Source: Trichodelitschia bisporula (Eukaryota). From it: a stretch of DNA of 64,000 bases. This document shows, in pieces, positions 53,770-64,000 of the stretch. Numbering within the stretch: the stretch's first letter is position 1; each line of letters opens with the position of its first letter. The DNA is taken from the NCBI GenBank assembly GCA_010356995.1, contig ML996703.1, positions 496,001 through 560,000 on the forward strand, read 5' to 3'. The notes under the pieces are model-generated. The model was not told where the DNA came from. It saw only the letters and a list, made by a program, of their open reading frames with translations, and did not search any database. The translations under genes and the position numbers were made by a program.

Positions 53770-56700
53770 ATGTATATCTCTGCTGCTGCTCTGCTCGCGG
53801 CAGCGTCGGTTGTTGTGCCGGCTGTGGCGGTGAAGACGTTCGACAGCACCTCAAGGAACAATGTTGTGGTGTATTGGGTAAGTCTGGTGATACTGGAGTG
53901 TATCCCCACTGACGAGACATAGGGTCAAGGTGCCGGTCAAGGCCAGCTGAGCGCCGTTTGTGACAACGACGACATTGACATCGTGGTCGTTGGCTTCGTT
54001 AACGTTTACCCGAGTGCGGCCACCGGCGGCTATCCGGGCACTAACTTCGGCAACCAGTGCAGCGGTACCACCTACCAGACGACAGTCAATGGTCAAACGG
54101 TCAGCACGGGGCTGCTAAACAGCTGCCCGGGTATCGGGCCGGGCATCAAAGCCTGCCAGGCCAAGGGCGTGAAGGTGCTTCTGTCGATCGGCGGCGCGGC
54201 GCCGGCGGACGGCTTCCTCGAGAGTAATGCCGCTGGGGTTGATTTCGCCAACTTCCTGTGGGGCGCCTTCGGCCCGTCAACCACTGCCTGGACCAACGCG
54301 GGTAAGCCGCGTCCTTTCGGCGACGCCGCTTTCGATGGCTTCGATCTCGACATCGAGACGGTCCGCGCTTCGGCGCCGAAGGATTCGAATGGCAATACCG
54401 TGACTGACTGGAAGACGCGCGGGTACACCGCGCTCGTCAACCAACTGCGGGCGAACCTCGACTCCGTGTCCGACACGCCGCGTTACCTGTCTGCCGCGCC
54501 GCAGTGCGTGGTGCCCGATGCGTATCTCCAAGATAGTATCACGAAGGGCCTGTATGACTTCATCTTCGTGCAGTTGTACAACACGGCACAGTGCTCGGCG
54601 AAGAGCGGCCTCTTCGACCTGAACAACTGGGTATTCACAAACCCGAACGTTCGCGTGTTCATAGGCCTGGTAAGTGGATTCACTCATTTAGGAGAAGGGG
54701 CATACTGACTTCTCTAGCTTGCTGACCCCACCGACGAGTACTACCTCACCCCAACCGAAGTGCGTACGCGGGCACTGCAGCAGAACAACGTCCCTAACTT
54801 CGGTGGCATTATGGTGTGGGACTCTGCGAGCAGCCAGGGCAACACCAAATGCGGCAAGGAGTACGCCAGCTGGATGAAGACGGTACTGAAGAGCCTGCCT
54901 TCTGGCACGTTTACCGAGACCTGTCCCGTGTCCAGCAGCATCAGGCCCTCGAGCTCTGTCTTTTCGAGCAGCATCAAGCCGTCCAGCTCCGTTTTCTCGT
55001 CCAGCATCAAGCCGTCCAGCTCCATCTTCTCGAGCAGCATCAAGCCGTCCAGCTCCGTTTTCTCGAGCAGCATCAAGCCGTCCAGCTCCGTTTTCTCGAG
55101 CAGCATCAAGCCGTCCAGCNNNNNNNNNNNNNNNNNNNNNNNNNNNNNNNNNNNNNNNNNNNNNNNNNNNNNNNNNNNNNNNNNNNNNNNNNNNNNNNNN
55201 NNNNNNNNNNNNNNNNNNNNNNNNNNNNNNNNNNNNNNNTCATCCAGCGTCAAGCCGTCCAGCTCCGTCTTCTCGAGCAGCATCATACCGTCCAGCTCCG
55301 TTTTCTCGAGCAGCATCAAGCCGTCCAGCTCCGTCTTCTCATCCTCGGCTCAGGCCTCGAGCTCCGTTTTCTCATCCTCCATTAAGCCCTCGAGCTCCGT
55401 TTTCTCGTCCAGCATCAAGCCGTCGAGCTCCGTCTTCTCATCCTCCATCAAGCCGTCAAGCTCCGTCTTCTCGTCCTCGGCCCAGGCGTCCAGCTCCGCC
55501 CTCCCGTCCAGCTTCTTCTCGAGCTCAAAGGCCTCGAGCGCCGCGTCGTCCAGCCTCCTCTCCTCGGCCAAGTCCTCATCCAGCGTGTTCAGCTCCTCTG
55601 CCGCCGCGAGCGCGAGCGCGTCTGCCAGCTCCGCCAGGTCGTCAAGCGTATTGAGCTCCTCTGCCGCCGCGAGCGCAAGTGCGTCCGCCAGCTCCGCCAA
55701 GTCCTCAAGCGTGTTGAGCTCCTCTGCCGCCGCGAGCGCAAGTGCGTCCGCCAGCTCCGCCCAGTCCAGCTCTGCGGCAGGTGCGTCCAGCGCAGCCCCC
55801 AGCTCGGCTAAGAGCAGCTCCGCATTCCCATCGTTCTCCATCCCCAGCGGCTTCAGCGCGAGCGCCAGCTCCGCCCTGTCCAGCTCTGCGGCAGGTGCAT
55901 CCAGCGCGGCCCCCAGCTCGGCGAAGAGCAGCTCCGCGTCCCCGTCGTTCTCCATCCCCAGCGGGCCCGGCTTCAGCGCGAGTGCCAGCTTCTCTGGCCT
56001 CCCGTCGTTCTCAATCCCCAGCGGCCCTGGCTTCAGCGCGAGCGCGAGCTCCTCGGCCCTCCCGTCGTTCTCCATCCCCAGCGGACCCGGTGTCAGCGCG
56101 AGCGCCAGCGGCAGCGCGTCCGCCTCTTTCTCCTTCTCCAACGGTCCGGTCTTCAGCTCGCGCCCCGCGCTCTCGGAGAAGAGCTCCAGCAGCGTGCCGT
56201 ACTACCCGTCCTCCAGCAGCAGCGCGCCCTACTACCCTGCCTCGTCATCCTCGTCATCGAGCTACACCGATGGCTACTACAGCTACGGGTACAGCATGGC
56301 GCCACCCAAGCCCTCGTCGTCGTCCGTATACGGCGCGCCTCCTTACCCGGGCAAGTCCTCATCCTCGTCGTCGGTGGCCTGGGTGTACCCCACGGGCTCG
56401 CCGCGCCTGACCACAAGCACCATCTACAGCACGCGCACGCGCACCATCACGCTCGGTGGCTGGCCGACGCTGACGACTGAGACCGTTTCCGTCGGGACGA
56501 CGGTGTGCGAAGCGGGCTCCACGCCGACGACTGTGTACACGACTACGACGATTTACAGCACGCGCACGCGCACCGTGACTGAGAAGGGTTATGTCAGCAC
56601 GAGCACCGATGTGGTCGTCATTGGTACTACGGTTGTGCCCGTTTACTCGGTCTCCACGCCCGCAGCGCCTGTCAAGAACGTGCCGTCGGGTGCGCCTGGG

Positions 56701-57063
56701 TATGTCTACTCGCCGGAGAAGCCGGTTGTTTCGGCACCCGCTGTTTCGGCGCCCGCTGGGCCGGGCTATGCGCCTGGTCCTGGGGGCGAGGCGAAGTCGG
56801 CGGCTGTGACTACTGTCGTCGTTGTGCCCGTGCCGGCTGCGGAGTACTACGCTTCCGTGAGCGCGGCGGGTGTGGCCAAGGGCACCGGGGTTGCGGTCAA
56901 GCCGGTGTATGGCACGGCAGCGCCGAGTGGGTATCCCGTTGGTGGAGGGAAGACTGGCGGGTCGTACGTCAGCCCCGAGAAGTTCACTGGTGGGGCTGGG
57001 CAGGTTGTTGCGGGGATTGGGGCGGTTATTGTGGGGGGTGTTGTTGCGGTTTTGCTGTTGTAA
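53770..57063 (+). CDS. GH18 class III (subgroup B, ChiA/Cts1-like) chitinase with Ser-rich stalk and probable GPI anchor
   Basis: Signal peptide, VYWGQG, LLSIGGA, catalytic FDGFDLDIE, SAAPQC, FGGIMVWD; introns 53878-53922 and 54670-54717; hydrophobic C-terminus. Confidence 0.93.
54931..55490 (+). repeat. 36-nt coding minisatellite (SSSIKPSSSVFS)n containing an assembly gap
   Basis: Tandem AGCAGCATCAAGCCGTCCAGCTCCGTTTTCTCG-type units flank a 120-N gap at 55120-55239. Confidence 0.93.
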
Positions 57064-57339
57064 GGAACCTCATTGTGGGTGGGAAAATGTGATGTTGGTT
57101 TGATGAGGTTGGGTGGTGGATGGTGGGAGTGGGAGTTCTCTTTGTGATAATGGGGTTCGTCTCGTTATTTTTTCGTGTATATTGAATGAAGATGTTTGGA
57201 TATCTACTTAGAATGGGTGGTGAAGGCTGTGGGTCCGGCGTCGCATCGCGTTTTCCTTTGTCTAGTTGCTTTTCACAATGGAGCAAATGAAGTCTCGAAT
57301 AACAATCCTCTTGACATGCAGTGGAGTTGACTGATGATT

Positions 57340-57390
57340 GGAGGAGGAGGAGGAGGAGGAGGAGGTGGCGGTGGTGGTGGTGGTGGTGGT
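57340..57390 (+). repeat. (GGA)n(GGT)n trinucleotide microsatellite
   Basis: Directly visible compound repeat. Confidence 0.9.
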
Positions 57391-58280
57391 TGAATGCGGG
57401 ATGTGAGTGGAAGAGCGGTACACAAGGAGCTGGTACCTTGCTTACCCGTCACGGCCGGGCCGGTACATGTGCATGACGCGGAAATCATGTACCTGTTCGC
57501 GGGTATGGGAGGACGAAGCAAGGGGAGGCTTTGACGCGCGGATGATGGCTTTGGAGGCATGGATCGTGGAGAGAGGTGGGTGAATCCTAGGCATTCGCTT
57601 CGTCAGCCGCATATCTCGACTTCTACTCCTCCTTGTTGCACATCGTGATCATGTCATTTAAGCCTCAACATCCACTGTCCTCCACGTCTCTCCGCTCACC
57701 GGAATCGTCATGATTGCCACGGCCATGCTCCCTCCCCACCTTTACGACCTTCTCGCCGCCCCTCCATCCCGCCCCACCATCCCCGGGGCAGGCTCATGCA
57801 GCCATGAGGCAGGGATACGCAAGAGTGCCAGCACATCAAAGTGGGCTTGGAAGAGAGAGAAAGAAAACGTCAGTGCCCGGATGCCGCAAACTCTGGGTAG
57901 TTCTGCAGTTTGTAGTTGGCAGGTTGCATGCAGTTCGCGGCGCTGCAGCTTCTCCACTCTCCACTCTCCACTCTCCACTCTCCACTCTGCTCTCTCATCT
58001 CCTCCCTCCTCTTTGTGCTGCAGACACTGTCTTTGTGCTGCAGACACTGCAGAATCTGCCTTTTCAAGCCCCGGAGCACGTTTGATTGATCACTGACAGC
58101 TGCGCGTCCTCCTCTCTGCCTTATCCTTTCGTGCTCCCATCGCTCGTCTGTGTCTTTGTCCTCTACTACATCGCTGAGAAGAGTTGCGTCGGGCCGTTGT
58201 CTCTGCCGGAGCGTTGCGTCTTGGCTATTGGGCGTCGTGTCTCGAGATTTCTTCCCTTCGCTGCATCGACAACTTCATCT

Positions 58281-58357
58281 CTTCTCCTCTTCTCCTCTTC
58301 TCCTCTTCTCCTCTTCTCCTCTTCTCCTCTTCTCCTCTTCTCCTCTTCTCCTCTTCT
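58281..58357 (+). repeat. (CTTCTCCT)x9 polypyrimidine tandem repeat
   Basis: Perfect 8-mer tandem array. Confidence 0.92.
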
Positions 58358-59076
58358 TGTCTCGTGTCTCCAAGGGAAGGACGGCGGAGGAAATGGTAAA
58401 GGTGTGAGGTTGTTGTTGGTTCTGCAGCGTGTCAATTGGCCATCATCGTTGTTGTCTTGACTCAATTAGCAGAGTGGTGGAGCTTGGACGACACGGAGCT
58501 ATCTCGCTTCTCTAGCTTTCTCTCCGCTCTCTTCTCACTCTACACCAACCTCCCCCACCGCCCCCACCGCCCCCACCAAAGCAAGAGAAGCTCTCTCCAC
58601 CAAGCGACCACTAAGGAAACTCCGTGATGCACAACTGCAGACCAACAAGACGATAGCTTGCAGGTAAGACACCTCACTGTTACTTGCTGTTCAGTTGTTC
58701 GCCTCGAAAAAACGCGCTTGGTCGCCTTGGAGCTGTTGCAAGTGGTGGAGAGAGCTCGCAGCTCGCGCTTTGCTTGCTGCGCGTCCTCCTCCACACCCCA
58801 GCCTCACAATATTCCCACACCAGCCCCCCCCCCCCATCCTTTCCAACTCAACTCCGTCACGCGTCCCATCTTCACTCCCTTAACACTCTGAACTTTTCCT
58901 TTGCCTTGACCTGCTCAAGCTACACACATACCCCAGCCTCAGCAGAGCCTCCACAAATGTTGCCTCGCACACTGACAGCTCCCCGTTCTTAGGACAAACT
59001 CCCCTTGTCCTCTCTCCTCAACTTCCTTCCTCTTCCCGTCTGAAAAGGCCATTGCGACACCAAACAATACACGAGC

Positions 59077-61716
59077 TTGAGCTCTCCCCCCCCCCCCAGT
59101 CCGGTGCCACGACATACCCTCCGTAGCCCGCCACCAGACCTGCCCGAGCCGAGTTCCGCAGGGCACGGCGTGAAGCTGCACTCCGCTTTCACATTGACCG
59201 GGCCACCGTCGCTGTCGCGACCTTCCACGTTGTCTTCCCTACACCCTCCTCCGTCCTCTAACGAGCTCCACGACATTGACGGCCACGGCGAGCAGGAATA
59301 TCTCACGTCTCTGCAGCAGAGTCAGCGCGCCGCTCTCGACACTTTTGGTCCACCTGTCCTCTCGCGCCCCTCCTCGTCTTCGGGTACGACGCTGCACTCG
59401 CTGCGACGCACCCCTAATCTCGAGGAGGAACAATTGCGACGCGTCCGCTCTGCATCCGTAGCATCGGCCAACCCTCCACCACTCCCACCAAGCGCGCAGG
59501 CGCAGCAGCAGCAACCGCGCCCCAACGTCCGCTTCGCAGAGGACGTCTCGGGAGGCTCGCACTCGCCGCATCCCGCCGTCCGCATCTCGCGCCGCACCGC
59601 CTCTGCCATCCTCGTCGCTCTTGAGGCCACCCGCACTCCCAACCCATTCACTCCCGTGCTTGAGGAGGAGAACGCCGATATGGCTGACCTGGGCGGCGGT
59701 GCCAGAGCTGCCAACGGCTCTGCCCGTACCACACAAGGCCCCGTCCCTGTTTCCGCGTCACAACCACAGTCAACCCGTGCTCCTCCCCCCTTCATGCCAC
59801 CGACGGAGATCATGCGTCGCCGGGGAGAGCGCGAGCAGCGCCGTCAACAGCAGCTTGAAGAGGAGAAGCGCGCGGCTGCTCCACCCGGTGCACAGGAGAC
59901 ATCCCAGAATCCGCAGCAGACGGAACAGCCGCAGCGGCTGCCTCAAAGCGGCCATCGTCGGACACAGACTGTGACGCAGGCGACATACCCCCCCCTGCAG
60001 GCTGGAGCGCAACCACAATCGTCAGCACAACGTACGCAGTCGGACCCCCAACCAGGCCGTCCACGTGCCACATCACAATCGCAACAGACGCCGCGGCCAG
60101 TGCCCACCGCCGGCCCCAGCGGCTCCCAAGCACGTCCACAAGCCCGTGCACAACAACCTCAGCAGCAGCAACAATCGCCTCCCTCACAGCGTGCGCCGCA
60201 ACCGCAATCGCGCCCCATCGCGGGCGGAGGAAGCACCCGAGCTCCTGCACCGGGCGCCTCGGAACCGAGCCAAGAAGCCGCACGCCGACCATCGAATGTC
60301 TCCTCCTTCCCGCATGCCTTTGAGCGCTGGGAAATCATGTCGTCGCACTGGGAGGGTCTGACGTCATACTGGCTGCACAGGCTGGAGCAGAACAAGGATG
60401 AGCTGCGGAAGGAGCCAATGCTTACGCAGCTGAGTCGGCAAGTCACGGACCTGTCGGCGGCAGGTGCGAACCTCTTCCATGCCGTCGTCGAGCTGCAGCG
60501 TCTCCGCGCCTCGTCCGAACGCAAGTTCCAGCGCTGGTTCATCGAGACGCGCAAGGACGCCGAGCGTGCGGGCGAAGTCGTCAAGCAGCTGGAGAACCAG
60601 GTGCTGGCCGAGCGGCGCGCGCGACAGGACGCGGATGCGCGCATCCAAGCGGCGCAGGACGGTGCGAGGGAAGCGCACACCCTCGTCAAAGAGATGCAAC
60701 GCGAGCTACGCATCAGCAAGGAGGAGTCGCGTCGAGCGTGGGAGGAGCTCGGCCGTAGAGAACAGGAGGAGCGCGACCGCACCGCCGCCCTGCGTGACGG
60801 CCAACCCATCGTCGTCGGCGGGTACCAGGTCTACCCACGCATGCAGCCCGGCCAGCCCGACGATGGTACTGAACAGCACGAGATGGCGGAGTACGGGTAC
60901 GGGCCCTCCGATGCCGGTGCCGGGCCGAGCGACGTCGGCGCCGGCGTCGGCCATGAAGGACTACCCTACGACCCGACCCGCTCCCCGGCGAACACAGACC
61001 CCTTCACCGAGCCCGCCCCCGCCGCGGGATCCTCGCTCGCCGGGCCCTTCCAGCCCGAATACCCCTTCCCAAGCGAAACGCCAGTGCAAGGCGCAGCGGA
61101 GGGCGCAGATGCGCGCTCCACCCTGCCCAGCCAACAACCGCCCACCACCACGAGTGCCGGCGACTTCTATCGCCTTGGCAACACGCACCTGGGTGCTGGT
61201 CCAGGCGCGCAAGAGGACCCGCACCCGTATGTTCCTGGCTCCGAGGATTGGGCGTCTAGCGCGGGCGAGGAGGATGACTACGCTACCGACGTCCAGGGCA
61301 ATGTGCTGCTGGACGCGGCTGGGCGGCCCGTGCCCTGGCGCCGGGGTGTCCAAGGCCCTGTCGAGGACGACGAGGGTGTGAGATACCCCGCCGTGCCGGC
61401 TATGACGTCGGCTGCAGTCCCGCCGGGGCGCCAGCAGCAGCCTGTCACGACGATGGCGGGTGTATCGCTCCCGCCGGCTGCGAGTGCGGGCGCGGTGTCG
61501 GCATCCGCGCCGCCTGCTGTTCCGCTTGCTGTTCCGCTGCCGCCTGGGAGTGTGGGCCCGGGACCGGATTATGAGGGGGATGGGTATGATGAGTGGGAGG
61601 AGCGGATGCGGCATCATCATCCGAGTCGGTTGAGTGATGTGCTAGAGATGGATGAGGATGAGCGGTCGCGGGTGAGTGAGATGGGGGAGGGGCAGGGGAG
61701 GGGAGCGCCGTTTTAG
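59077..61716 (+). CDS. Fungal coiled-coil protein of unknown function; first ATG at 59680, frame open from 59044
   Basis: Ordered core SSFPHAFERWE..HWEGLTSYW..DLSAAGANLFHAVVELQRLRASSERKFQRWF plus coiled coil, flanked by disordered P/Q-rich regions; C-terminal RHHHPSRLSDVLE. Confidence 0.85.
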   Translation: MSSPPPPSPVPRHTLRSPPPDLPEPSSAGHGVKLHSAFTLTGPPSLSRPSTLSSLHPPPSSNELHDIDGHGEQEYLTSLQQSQRAALDTFGPPVLSRPSSSSGTTLHSLRRTPNLEEEQLRRVRSASVASANPPPLPPSAQAQQQQPRPNVRFAEDVSGGSHSPHPAVRISRRTASAILVALEATRTPNPFTPVLEEENADMADLGGGARAANGSARTTQGPVPVSASQPQSTRAPPPFMPPTEIMRRRGEREQRRQQQLEEEKRAAAPPGAQETSQNPQQTEQPQRLPQSGHRRTQTVTQATYPPLQAGAQPQSSAQRTQSDPQPGRPRATSQSQQTPRPVPTAGPSGSQARPQARAQQPQQQQQSPPSQRAPQPQSRPIAGGGSTRAPAPGASEPSQEAARRPSNVSSFPHAFERWEIMSSHWEGLTSYWLHRLEQNKDELRKEPMLTQLSRQVTDLSAAGANLFHAVVELQRLRASSERKFQRWFIETRKDAERAGEVVKQLENQVLAERRARQDADARIQAAQDGAREAHTLVKEMQRELRISKEESRRAWEELGRREQEERDRTAALRDGQPIVVGGYQVYPRMQPGQPDDGTEQHEMAEYGYGPSDAGAGPSDVGAGVGHEGLPYDPTRSPANTDPFTEPAPAAGSSLAGPFQPEYPFPSETPVQGAAEGADARSTLPSQQPPTTTSAGDFYRLGNTHLGAGPGAQEDPHPYVPGSEDWASSAGEEDDYATDVQGNVLLDAAGRPVPWRRGVQGPVEDDEGVRYPAVPAMTSAAVPPGRQQQPVTTMAGVSLPPAASAGAVSASAPPAVPLAVPLPPGSVGPGPDYEGDGYDEWEERMRHHHPSRLSDVLEMDEDERSRVSEMGEGQGRGAPF

Positions 61717-62226
61717 CTCTCAGTTCCCGTAGCTGCGCTTTGATACCCCGGGTGATAGGAAGGTTGAGATGGGAAGGTTGTGTAATCTGGGGGTTTTTTT
61801 TTCTTTGTGTGGTAAAATCTCTCTTGTGGGTTGTGGAGTGGAAGTGGGTTCGGCATAGCGAGGTGTGTGGCGTGCTTGTTTTGTACGATAGACGGGATGC
61901 TCAGAATGGGGATTTGGGGCTGGGATGGAAGATGGGTACCAACCGGCCTGGTATGGGCTGTGTACTAGGTTAATGCATATTCTGTGTCGAATGTTGGGTT
62001 GCTGCTGCCTGTGACGCTGGTGCACGTGGGTGTGGGTGATGCCTGTTCGAAGTGGATCTCGATATCATTGAGCATGGACGCGCTACCGTATAACGCCGAA
62101 AATGAACACCTGCACATCGCAGAAAACAAGCAGTCTAGTCTACCGAAACAGTACAACAAGGGGAGGGGTATACGCATCATTCATCCATCCATCCTGATCA
62201 TCACACACCAGTAATCGTGAGGAGCA

Positions 62227-64000
62227 CTAAAATCTCTCCATCAAGTTCCGCCTTACCGTCCACATACGCGCCCTCTTGCCAAAGATAAACAGAGGCACAG
62301 TGAACACCAGCACGCCGAGCTGGATCCCCCCAATGGCCAAGAACACCTTCTTGCTCCCGTCCGCCTCGAGCCAGCGTGTGAAGAACAGGCTGAAGACCAG
62401 GCCATGGAAGATATCTGCGCGTCAAAGTCAGCATCTCAGGGTCTAAAACAGAAAAATACCGGGGAAGGGACCACTCACTCTTCGCAAAATTCAGCGTTAC
62501 CAACGCCTCCCCCGCATACGCCCGGTAACTATCCACGCAAAACGTAATCGCCGTCGTGCTCCCCAGCGTACACCCAAAACTAATAACGCCAAAGAAAACC
62601 GTCGGCACGATCCACGCATCGCGCTCCTCGGCACTCCACCCAAACCCCCAAAGCCCAATCGTCGTGCACAGCGCCACGGGAATGGCCATGACGAGGCGGA
62701 ACTCCGGCTCGTACACGCCGCCGTTGCGCCGCGACATGGCGCGGACAATAATGTCGGACACTTTGCCCGCGACGGCGGTGCCGAGCACGCCGCCGATGAA
62801 GGGCGAGATGTACACCAGGCCTGTCTGCAGCGCGGTGAAGTGGTACGTGTCGCGGGAGCGGTATATGCCGGATACGCTCTCAGAGAGGACGATCAGCCAC
62901 CCCACGCTGAGCGCGTACACGGCTGACGACCAGAGCACGGCGGGGTAGCAGTAGAGGATGAAGGGCCGCGCGGCGACGCGCAGCCAGGAGTCGGAGCAGA
63001 TGCGCCCGTTCCACGGGACGAGCGTCTCGAGGTACGGCTTCATGCCTGGTTCTGGGGGTTCGCCGGCGGAACCATGTGAAGGAGTGCGGGAAACGGCTTT
63101 AGGCTCGACAACGGAAGTCGGTGGAGAGGTAAGCGCAGGCGACGAGAGGACGCCGACGTGCTCAATGTCCTTCTTTTCGTCCTCGGCGTTGGCCGGGAGC
63201 ACGACGTGCCGCTCCTCTTGAGTCTTCTGCAAGTCCGCGGTAGGGGCCTCTCTGCCGCCCGTTGGTAGCGCAAAGTAGTCCGTCCCTTCATTCTCATCCC
63301 CAGCGCTCGTCTTCCCCTTATACCACGGCGAATTTAGATTGCGAAGGTCGGGGGTTGCGGGTTTCAGTGTGCTATTCTGCTCCACAGCCCATGCCTCAGG
63401 GTGATCCCAACTCGATGCTGGACGCGAAGTCTGAGCGGCGGGGTCGGTGGCGGGGAGCATGATCGGCGGCGGCCTTGCGCGGGTCGACTCCGGGGTGGCA
63501 GAGTCTAGAACTTCGACGGTAGGGATAGTGACTGCGGGATCGGACGCGAAGGCAACATGCACGGTGGGGTCATGGCGCTTTGTTTCCGGCGAGGGGAGCG
63601 TCGAGGGGAGCGCCGAGGTGTGAGCGGCATGTTTCGACGATTTGAGGCGGGAGAAGTGAGGCCGGGCAAAGCTGCGTACGGATTTGGCGGACGCCGGACG
63701 CATGGCATGTCTTGGTCGGGGCGTGCGGTCCCAGAAGGTCTCGGGGACGAAGAAGAAGAGGAGGAAAAAGCAGCCGCCGACGATGGCAGAGACGACCCTC
63801 AAGGACAAGGGTTAGCTGGCTACGGGGCTTGGGGCTTAGGTCTCGGGGGTGGGGGTTACCAGAAGGTCCATCGCCAGTCCATCGCCCCGATGATGGCGGC
63901 ACTGACGAGGGGGATGAGGTTCTTCCCTCCCAGCAGAAGCAGCGTGTAGATACCCAGCCGGTACGCACGCTCGTGCAGGAAGAAAATCTCGGCTATGGTG
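62227..64000 (-). CDS. MFS transporter (DHA1/HOL1-like), 5' end outside the window
   Basis: AEIFFLHERAYRLGIY, WRWTFW, VPETFW, large cytoplasmic loop, RRNGGVYEPEFRL, ..GKRARMWTVRRNLMERF*; 2 introns visible. Confidence 0.9.

Follow-up and report, generated by a model that had tools for sequence, protein, structure and literature searches.

A gene on the forward strand of a 64,000-nucleotide (nt) stretch of the Trichodelitschia bisporula genome, referred to here in its full length as the window, probably gives rise to two proteoforms from one messenger RNA (mRNA). The longer would be initiated at a UUG codon at position 59194, and the shorter, annotated one would be reached by leaky scanning to the AUG at 59680. 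A sequence-only reading of the same DNA had already proposed that two isoforms arise by near-cognate initiation and leaky scanning. Comparison with orthologs bore out a coding extension, the absence of ATG upstream and the conservation of the first AUG, though it moved the start to TTG 59194. In the mechanism that we favour, part of the scanning 40S subunits would initiate at UUG 59194, preceded by A at -3 and C at -4, and would yield a protein of 840 amino acids (aa). The first 162 residues of this long form would bear conserved short motifs, including basic Ser/Thr sites (LRRTP and RISRRTAS). The remaining subunits would scan about 490 nt from which AUG is excluded in every frame, and would start at AUG 59680, yielding the annotated 678-aa protein without the extension motifs. 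From patterns of conservation we infer ribosome initiation at the UUG (with the adjacent ACG or the CUG or GUG of a second motif, motif B, possibly serving as well), accumulation of both products, and a ratio of long to short form that tracks start-codon stringency.

In the window, the forward ATGs around the site lie at 58393, 58627, 58957 and 59680. This listing agrees with the sequence-only reading, according to which no ATG occurs in any forward frame from 58960 to 59679. The main frame (position mod 3 = 1) is free of stops from 59044 to the first ATG, also as claimed, the last upstream stop being TGA 59041-59043. It stays open to TAG 61714-61716 and comprises 890 codons from stop to stop, with the first Met as codon 213 (ATG 59680). 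The stops described in both other frames were found (TAG 59124 and TGA 59171), together with further ones at 59078, 59195 and 59259; the peptide quoted for the extension was correctly translated, and a run of twelve C residues lies at 59086-59097 as reported. ATG 58957 exists in the main frame and is ended by a stop (TAG 58990); it would be removed by the leader intron that had also been suggested.

The ATG-free gap measures 723 nt and ranks third by length on the forward strand of the window, where 1.3% of 720-nt segments are free of ATG. The composition of the stretch itself leads to an expectation of 5.2 ATGs under a mononucleotide model and 3.0 under a first-order Markov model. Within the window alone the gap is unusual but suggestive only, not decisive, and its significance derives from the ortholog comparisons and not from window statistics. 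As a separate observation, only three forward ATGs were counted in 57929-59680, against 26 in 57100-57930. A second ATG-free stretch, of 484 nt (59812-60296), lies in the Gln/Pro-rich part of the coding sequence (CDS) and is probably compositional.

A search with the window protein detected 1,606 proteins with an expectation value (E) of 0.001 or less among 8,000 scored candidates, and the best 120 of these 1,606 matches were mostly from Dothideomycetes. The genome's own model (P0001, 678 aa) begins at ATG 59680, and the models of orthologs are 800-1,100 aa long. A divergent metagenome locus (L075), 98% identical to a Penicillium canescens model, served as query of a second protein search, which placed members of the family in Penicillium, Aspergillus (including A. 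fumigatus), Talaromyces and Paecilomyces. Since members were present in both search sets, the family covers at least Dothideomycetes and Eurotiomycetes. Pfam returned nothing above cut-off for the window protein or five orthologs, and a profile search of PDB gave no match for the family protein (best E = 0.47). In the ESM Atlas only unnamed Ascomycota clusters matched (best score 0.85), and a Foldseek search against PDB gave no match at E of 0.001 or less. The most conserved domain (Table 1) was predicted to form a short helix followed by a single helix of about 125 residues, with a mean predicted local distance difference test (pLDDT) score of 84, and the domain is probably a coiled coil. Literature searches, which did not extend to the supplements of Ivanov et al. 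2017, found no description of the family and no fungal screen naming it.

Conservation of the protein sequence extends well upstream of the first ATG. When 27 proteins were aligned, 23 positions among the first 212 were invariant, as was Met213. The invariant positions fall in the motifs TSLQQ, SRPSSSSG, LRRTP, PHPA-RISRRTASAI and PFTP..EEN, and the extension motifs are shared across two fungal classes at 36-49% identity. Homology ends at a short motif that reads F-T-L-T-G-P-P from 59188 in the window, and the N-termini predicted upstream of it in orthologs are unlike each other and unlike the window. Conserved amino acids upstream of the Met, as the sequence-only reading would have them, were thus present from 59188 on, both in this alignment and in one of 46 sequences, but nothing was conserved before 59188. 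The open stretch preceding this position is read here as 5′ leader.

The comparison at the nucleotide level was based on a scan of metagenome contigs, which returned 80 loci (L001-L080), 71 of them matching the extension. Collapsing identical sequences left 51 open reading frames (ORFs) taken from stop to stop, including that of the window. One of them (L037, cut by an intron and without Met) was set aside, leaving 50. The N-terminal alignment comprised 46 ORFs, L037 being absent and L002, L003, L009 and L038 having been dropped as cut or frame-disturbed upstream. Curation of the start motif retained 34 loci. The extension has 140-209 codons in orthologs. Among 15 pairs of related loci, 11 of 14 gaps in the 150 nt downstream of the TTG were multiples of three, and substitutions at the three codon positions numbered 178, 172 and 237. 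Over the same length upstream of the TTG, 31 of the 43 gaps were not multiples of three, and the corresponding substitution counts (272, 271 and 252) showed no codon-position bias. Judged by these patterns, the coding signature begins at the TTG and the 150 nt before it behave as non-coding. On the comparative evidence, the ATG-less extension is real coding sequence, conserved as protein.

For the assignment of the start codon, in-frame TTG, CTG or GTG codons at most seven columns from the window Leu codon 59194 were searched for in the 46 aligned ORFs. The curated ORFs share motif A, with the consensus F/L/V/I, A/T/K/D, L or V, S/T/P/H. Its Leu/Val codon is TTG in 31 of the 34 and GTG in the other three. 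The context is similarly uniform, with a purine at -3 in 34/34, C at -4 in 33/34 and T at -5 in 29/34. TTG accounts for 16.9% of the 2,010 Leu codons in the ORFs, and at six other columns of conserved Leu its share is 0-12%; because it is so rare at other Leu positions, constraint acts on the codon itself, beyond the amino acid. Many loci have an in-frame stop 3-10 codons upstream of the TTG.

The start candidates of the sequence-only reading were ACG 59071 and TTG 59077, credited with A at -3. Both are in frame, but A at -3 is found only for TTG 59077, ACG 59071 having T. Neither could be retained as the start, as both lie in the stretch without homology in any ortholog and the conserved candidate TTG 59194 lies 117-123 nt downstream. 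They could add a few species-specific residues. Counted from TTG 59194, the extension has about 162 aa and not about 200 as first estimated. With the start at TTG 59194 the C12 run falls in the leader, and its length is therefore irrelevant to the frame.

Other accounts of the conserved codon were discarded. TTGAC was rejected as a branch point, many loci having TTGTC or TTGCC, and the AG of the Ser codon past motif A was rejected as an acceptor, L032 being without that AG. Proteins starting MTSSGPP.., LTSSGPP.. or VTSS.. first looked like cases of ATG replacing TTG. They were not counted, as they came from metagenome and Logan gene callers that apparently accept TTG and GTG.

The absence of ATG upstream of the Met proved to be conserved in the orthologs, both in frame and out of frame. 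In all 50 non-identical ORFs (metagenome loci and window) the first in-frame ATG is found at codon 108-243, always past LRRTP. No in-frame Met occurs in the 8,951 codons before the first AUG, compared with 1.40 per 100 codons downstream. Out of frame, the extensions contain 24 ATGs in 26.9 kilobases (kb), or 0.89/kb, against 857 in 98.7 kb downstream (8.7/kb), a roughly tenfold difference. Codon shuffles of the extensions gave 109 +/- 9 out-of-frame ATGs, with a minimum of 85 in 200 shuffles. Such a depletion out of frame is not explained by elongation alone, but it would be expected if scanning subunits must pass through the extension to the AUG.

Between the TTG and the AUG, no ATG at all is present in 18 of the 34 curated loci, nor in the window. 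Each of the 20 residual ATGs in these 34 loci lies in frame +1 with a pyrimidine at -3, and the ORFs opened by them have 6-42 codons; such ATGs look bypassable by scanning subunits. Across the same loci, forward ATG density is 13-16/kb at -800 to -600 and drops to 0-1.8/kb over the 150 nt that directly precede the TTG. The usual density is back 9-129 nt past the conserved AUG. An ATG-poor zone that begins before the TTG fits a contiguous scanned leader.

Several points weigh against initiation at the UUG with scanning to the AUG. Many of the metagenome loci are near-duplicates that form about 20 distinct groups by eye, so that independent lineages number closer to 20 than to 50. Motif A was picked by hand curation in 34 of the 46 aligned ORFs, and the other 12 (L004, L017, L040, L042, L044, L047, L050, L061, L063, L064, L070 and L072) are without it, carrying CTG, ACG or a shifted TTG nearby, or only motif B. 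The +4 position at the TTG is never G in the curated loci. The context of the conserved AUG is weak in orthologs (pyrimidine at -3 in 44/50, T at +4 in 40/50), which is unexpected for a main start; AUG 59680 of the window has a good context, with G at -3 and G at +4. A downstream hairpin that might boost near-cognate initiation gave no signal over the 34 loci (mean z score -0.14, compared with +0.42 for a control segment). In Neurospora, UUG is reportedly among the weaker near-cognate starts. A review (Kearse and Wilusz 2017, PMC5666671) describes CUG as generally the most efficient near-cognate start.

Further difficulties for the UUG start come from signs of an upstream exon. It is conceivable, if unlikely, that an ATG-bearing mini-exon is spliced in frame at or just before motif A, and that the extension is exon 2 of an ordinary CDS. 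In that case a weak exon-1 AUG passed over by leaky scanning would account for the ATG-poor zone, or the zone would be meaningless. Short ATG-bearing upstream peptides do recur by clade in public models, namely MTGxxxAxF in four Dothideomycete models and in L005 and L008, M-x-P-E-T in Penicillium and MTPTSHFQM in the A. fumigatus group. Such peptides could represent a genuine first coding exon. L005 and L008 have an ATG with 7 or 12 codons followed by GTGAGT, the two differing by a 15-nt in-frame indel. In L008, splicing from the GTGAGT of the 12-codon exon to a GAG acceptor located 21 nt upstream of the TTG could preserve the frame, and a CTAAC branch point precedes this possible acceptor of L005 and L008 by 18 nt. 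Some AG is present between the stop and the TTG in 26 of the 34 curated loci, with TAG or CAG directly before the motif in several.

The remaining 8 of the 34 loci, however, have no AG from the in-frame stop to the TTG, and thus no acceptor is possible there. In the clade of L066, L077 and L080 the first AG past the stop is not at a fixed place, yet the peptide is conserved from the TTG onward. The upstream ATG-initiated ORF of Alternaria-like loci has 22 codons in L012 and 4 in L016, and there is none at that place in L039. In Penicillium it changes frame between L075/L021 and L056, although the nucleotides are still conserved. Models from a single species use different acceptors for the mini-exon. 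Splicing of this kind would also leave unexplained the conservation of the TTG/GTG codon and the depletion of ATG in the preceding 150 nt, a stretch that would have to be intron. In the window, joining any ATG exon in frame needs an intron of 670-1,930 nt, and a CTRAY branch point is absent for all 10 AG sites located in 59042-59262.

Somewhat less probable again is non-AUG initiation shared by several near-cognate codons, and not mainly by the conserved TTG, resulting in a ragged N-terminus like that proposed for cpc-1. The window frame, open from 59044, offers TTG 59077, CTG 59140, GTG 59170, CTG 59176, TTG 59194, CTG 59212 and ACG 59227, several of them with a purine at -3. In many orthologs an ACG directly follows the TTG or GTG, with the CTG or GTG of motif B 6-30 codons later, and L061, L063 and L064 have motif B alone. 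Three conserved near-cognate codons are described for cpc-1 in Ivanov et al. 2017 (PMC5487733). Against such sharing stands the absence of ortholog conservation before 59188, and in many loci the in-frame stop shortly before the TTG bars the use of upstream codons. That AUG 59680 is the sole start, the upstream frame being a leader conserved at the RNA level or an assembly artefact, seems very improbable: the genome annotation and some A. fumigatus and Epicoccum models do begin at this AUG, but the amino-acid motifs are conserved between two fungal classes, substitutions are biased to the third position with indels in multiples of three, and the frame is open in 50 independent assemblies.

Public gene models of the family are discordant at the N-terminus. 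Eight NCBI models were flagged 'partial' (seven from the window-protein search and one from the L075 search). In A. fumigatus, models of 771, 761, 762 and 758 aa have differing N-termini, and others of 579 and 576 aa begin at the conserved AUG. Epicoccum models have 826 and 675 aa, and those of Alternaria 808, 859, 793 and 1,065 aa. Within a species, the disagreement between models at the N-terminus reaches about 200 residues (P0221, P0255-P0268, P0249, P0250 and P0271-P0282). Annotators reach no consistent start for the family. As the models are cut at the AUG, partial, or supplied with invented first exons, databases lack the conserved N-terminal module or give it incorrectly. Some model names are spurious as well ('Reticulocyte-binding protein 2 homolog a', 'Essential protein Yae1', 'two-component sensor protein histidine protein kinase'), and a fusion model of 1,917 aa is named 'chitinase'.

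With initiation at the conserved UUG, the gene would be a further case of a known type of conserved non-AUG extension, like that of cpc-1, the GCN4 homolog of Pezizomycotina. The account of cpc-1 in Ivanov et al. 2017 (PMC5487733) describes a conserved extension of 160-180 codons before the annotated AUG in filamentous ascomycetes, with conserved near-cognate codons in good context, one of which alternates between CUG and UUG. That extension is likewise under purifying selection, and automated annotations disagree on the start (PMC5487733). Unlike the extension described here, it overlaps two conserved AUG upstream ORFs (uORFs), an arrangement that is read there as a bypass of uORF control (PMC5487733). 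According to the same account (PMC5487733), cpc-1 is backed by cell-free translation, reporters and ribosome profiling, whereas the evidence for the window family comes from sequence comparison. In the window family the extension is AUG-poor in all frames, no conserved uORF was found in the comparison, and the conserved codon is UUG (GUG in one clade) without G at +4.

The classical fungal genes with dual isoforms are the yeast tRNA synthetase genes GRS1 and ALA1, whose extensions are short mitochondrial presequences. The window family differs from both in its disordered, motif-bearing extension of 140-209 codons and belongs to an unrelated protein family. As outlined in Kearse and Wilusz 2017 (PMC5666671), an upstream near-cognate codon (UUG in GRS1, ACG in ALA1) gives the long isoform and the first AUG the short one, and GRS1 thus shares its UUG with the window gene. 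The human non-AUG extensions treated in Ivanov et al. 2011 (PMC3105428) were recognised by the same logic, namely from conserved coding potential before the annotated AUG, together with a conserved near-cognate codon and the lack of an in-frame AUG. They concern another kingdom and other genes, and the window family is not part of that set.

A wider interpretation can be put forward only tentatively. The full-length protein may have been made solely from a UUG start since before the split of Eurotiomycetes and Dothideomycetes. Through the roughly 490-nt zone without AUG, the ratio of long to short isoform would then be a direct read-out of start-codon stringency, and the arrangement would act as a built-in translational switch by which a kinase-regulated N-terminal module is added to or removed from a coiled-coil protein. 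The lineages affected would include Aspergillus fumigatus, Penicillium and Alternaria, stringency would correspond to the balance of eIF1 and eIF5 and to stress, and the basic Ser/Thr motifs LRRTP and RISRRTAS would be present on the long form alone. If true, this would be among the clearest comparative cases in filamentous fungi of a full-length protein that depends on a non-AUG start, with a zone poor in AUG in all frames and a UUG conserved at the codon level in two classes that contain major pathogens and industrial moulds. The gene would offer a natural reporter of start-codon stringency in these fungi. The surprise is limited, since the mechanism has precedents in cpc-1 and other genes.

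Upstream of the extension, the sequence-only reading had described a 9-codon uORF and a putative leader intron. The short ORF is present at 58627-58656, and so are all the intron-like signals (GTAAGA 58664-58669, CTGAC 58972-58976 and TAG 58990-58992). No counterpart of the 9-codon ORF was seen in the orthologs, where even closely related loci have upstream ATG-initiated ORFs of differing frame and length. At a comparable place, Alternaria-like loci carry GTAAGT...TCTAAC...CAG, with an ATG shortly upstream of the donor, and these signals lend some support to a leader intron. A box with the sequence CCAGCC[AT]C, often CCCAGCCACC, lies 100-450 nt before the TTG in 27 of the 34 curated loci, in both fungal classes, and adjoins a CCAAT-like stretch in Penicillium-like loci. 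It may be a promoter or leader element of the gene family. A promoter at the box with transcription starting downstream of it would fit at least as well as a leader intron. If transcription starts downstream of the box, the uORF and the intron would lie outside the mRNA.

A pair of spliced and unspliced sequences was looked for among the loci. Only L077 and L080 differ in this way, far upstream, and they are uninformative for the region beside the TTG. L080 has a 100-nt GTGAGT...CTAAT...CAG segment about 500 nt before the TTG that is exactly absent from L077. Either one of these relatives has an intron that is missing in the other, or L077 is a partly spliced transcript contig. The features of the locus are collected in Table 1.

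Table 1. Features of the window around the proposed UUG start, in window coordinates.
Feature	Position	Strand	Remarks
9-codon ATG ORF, candidate uORF	58627..58656	+	closed by TAG 58654; no donor inside
Putative leader intron, 329 nt	58664..58992	+	sequence signals GTAAGA..CTGAC..TAG
Upstream box CCAGCC[AT]C, copy 1	58798..58805	+	inside putative intron
Upstream box CCAGCC[AT]C, copy 2	58933..58940	+	inside putative intron
Stretch without ATG in any forward frame	58960..59679	+	ATG listing of the window
Open, unconserved stretch read as 5′ leader	59044..59193	+	no ortholog aligns; holds ACG 59071, TTG 59077 and the C12 run
Motif A (TTC ACA TTG ACC GGG)	59188..59202	+	proposed UUG start at 59194-59196; codon conservation in 34 curated loci
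N-terminal extension, 162 codons	59194..59679	+	motifs TSLQQ, SRPSSSSG, LRRTP, PHPA-RISRRTASAI, PFTP..EEN
Proposed long form, 840 aa	59194..61716	+	start at TTG 59194
CTG of motif B (x-CTG/GTG-Ser-Arg), second conserved near-cognate codon	59212..59214	+	T at -3 in the window
First AUG, start of annotated 678-aa protein	59680..59682	+	invariant in 27/27 and 46/46; first in-frame ATG in 50/50 ORFs
CDS as annotated in the genome, 678 aa and stop	59680..61716	+	genome model P0001, 100% identical
Most conserved domain	60280..60849	+	mean column identity 74% over 32 sequences

The upstream neighbour (54718-57063, forward strand) is a long ORF with Ser-rich tandem repeats, the N-terminal part of which resembles, by eye, the end of a chitinase-type domain. 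Its repeat is broken by 120 N at 55120-55239, an assembly gap, and the repeat number is therefore unreliable. Between the genes there are two pyrimidine-rich microsatellites, (CTCCACT)n and (TCTTCTCC)n, at 57950-57990 and 58280-58357. The downstream neighbour (62201-63811, reverse strand) is an open frame of 536 codons with hydrophobic segments that, by eye, are like those of a membrane transporter.

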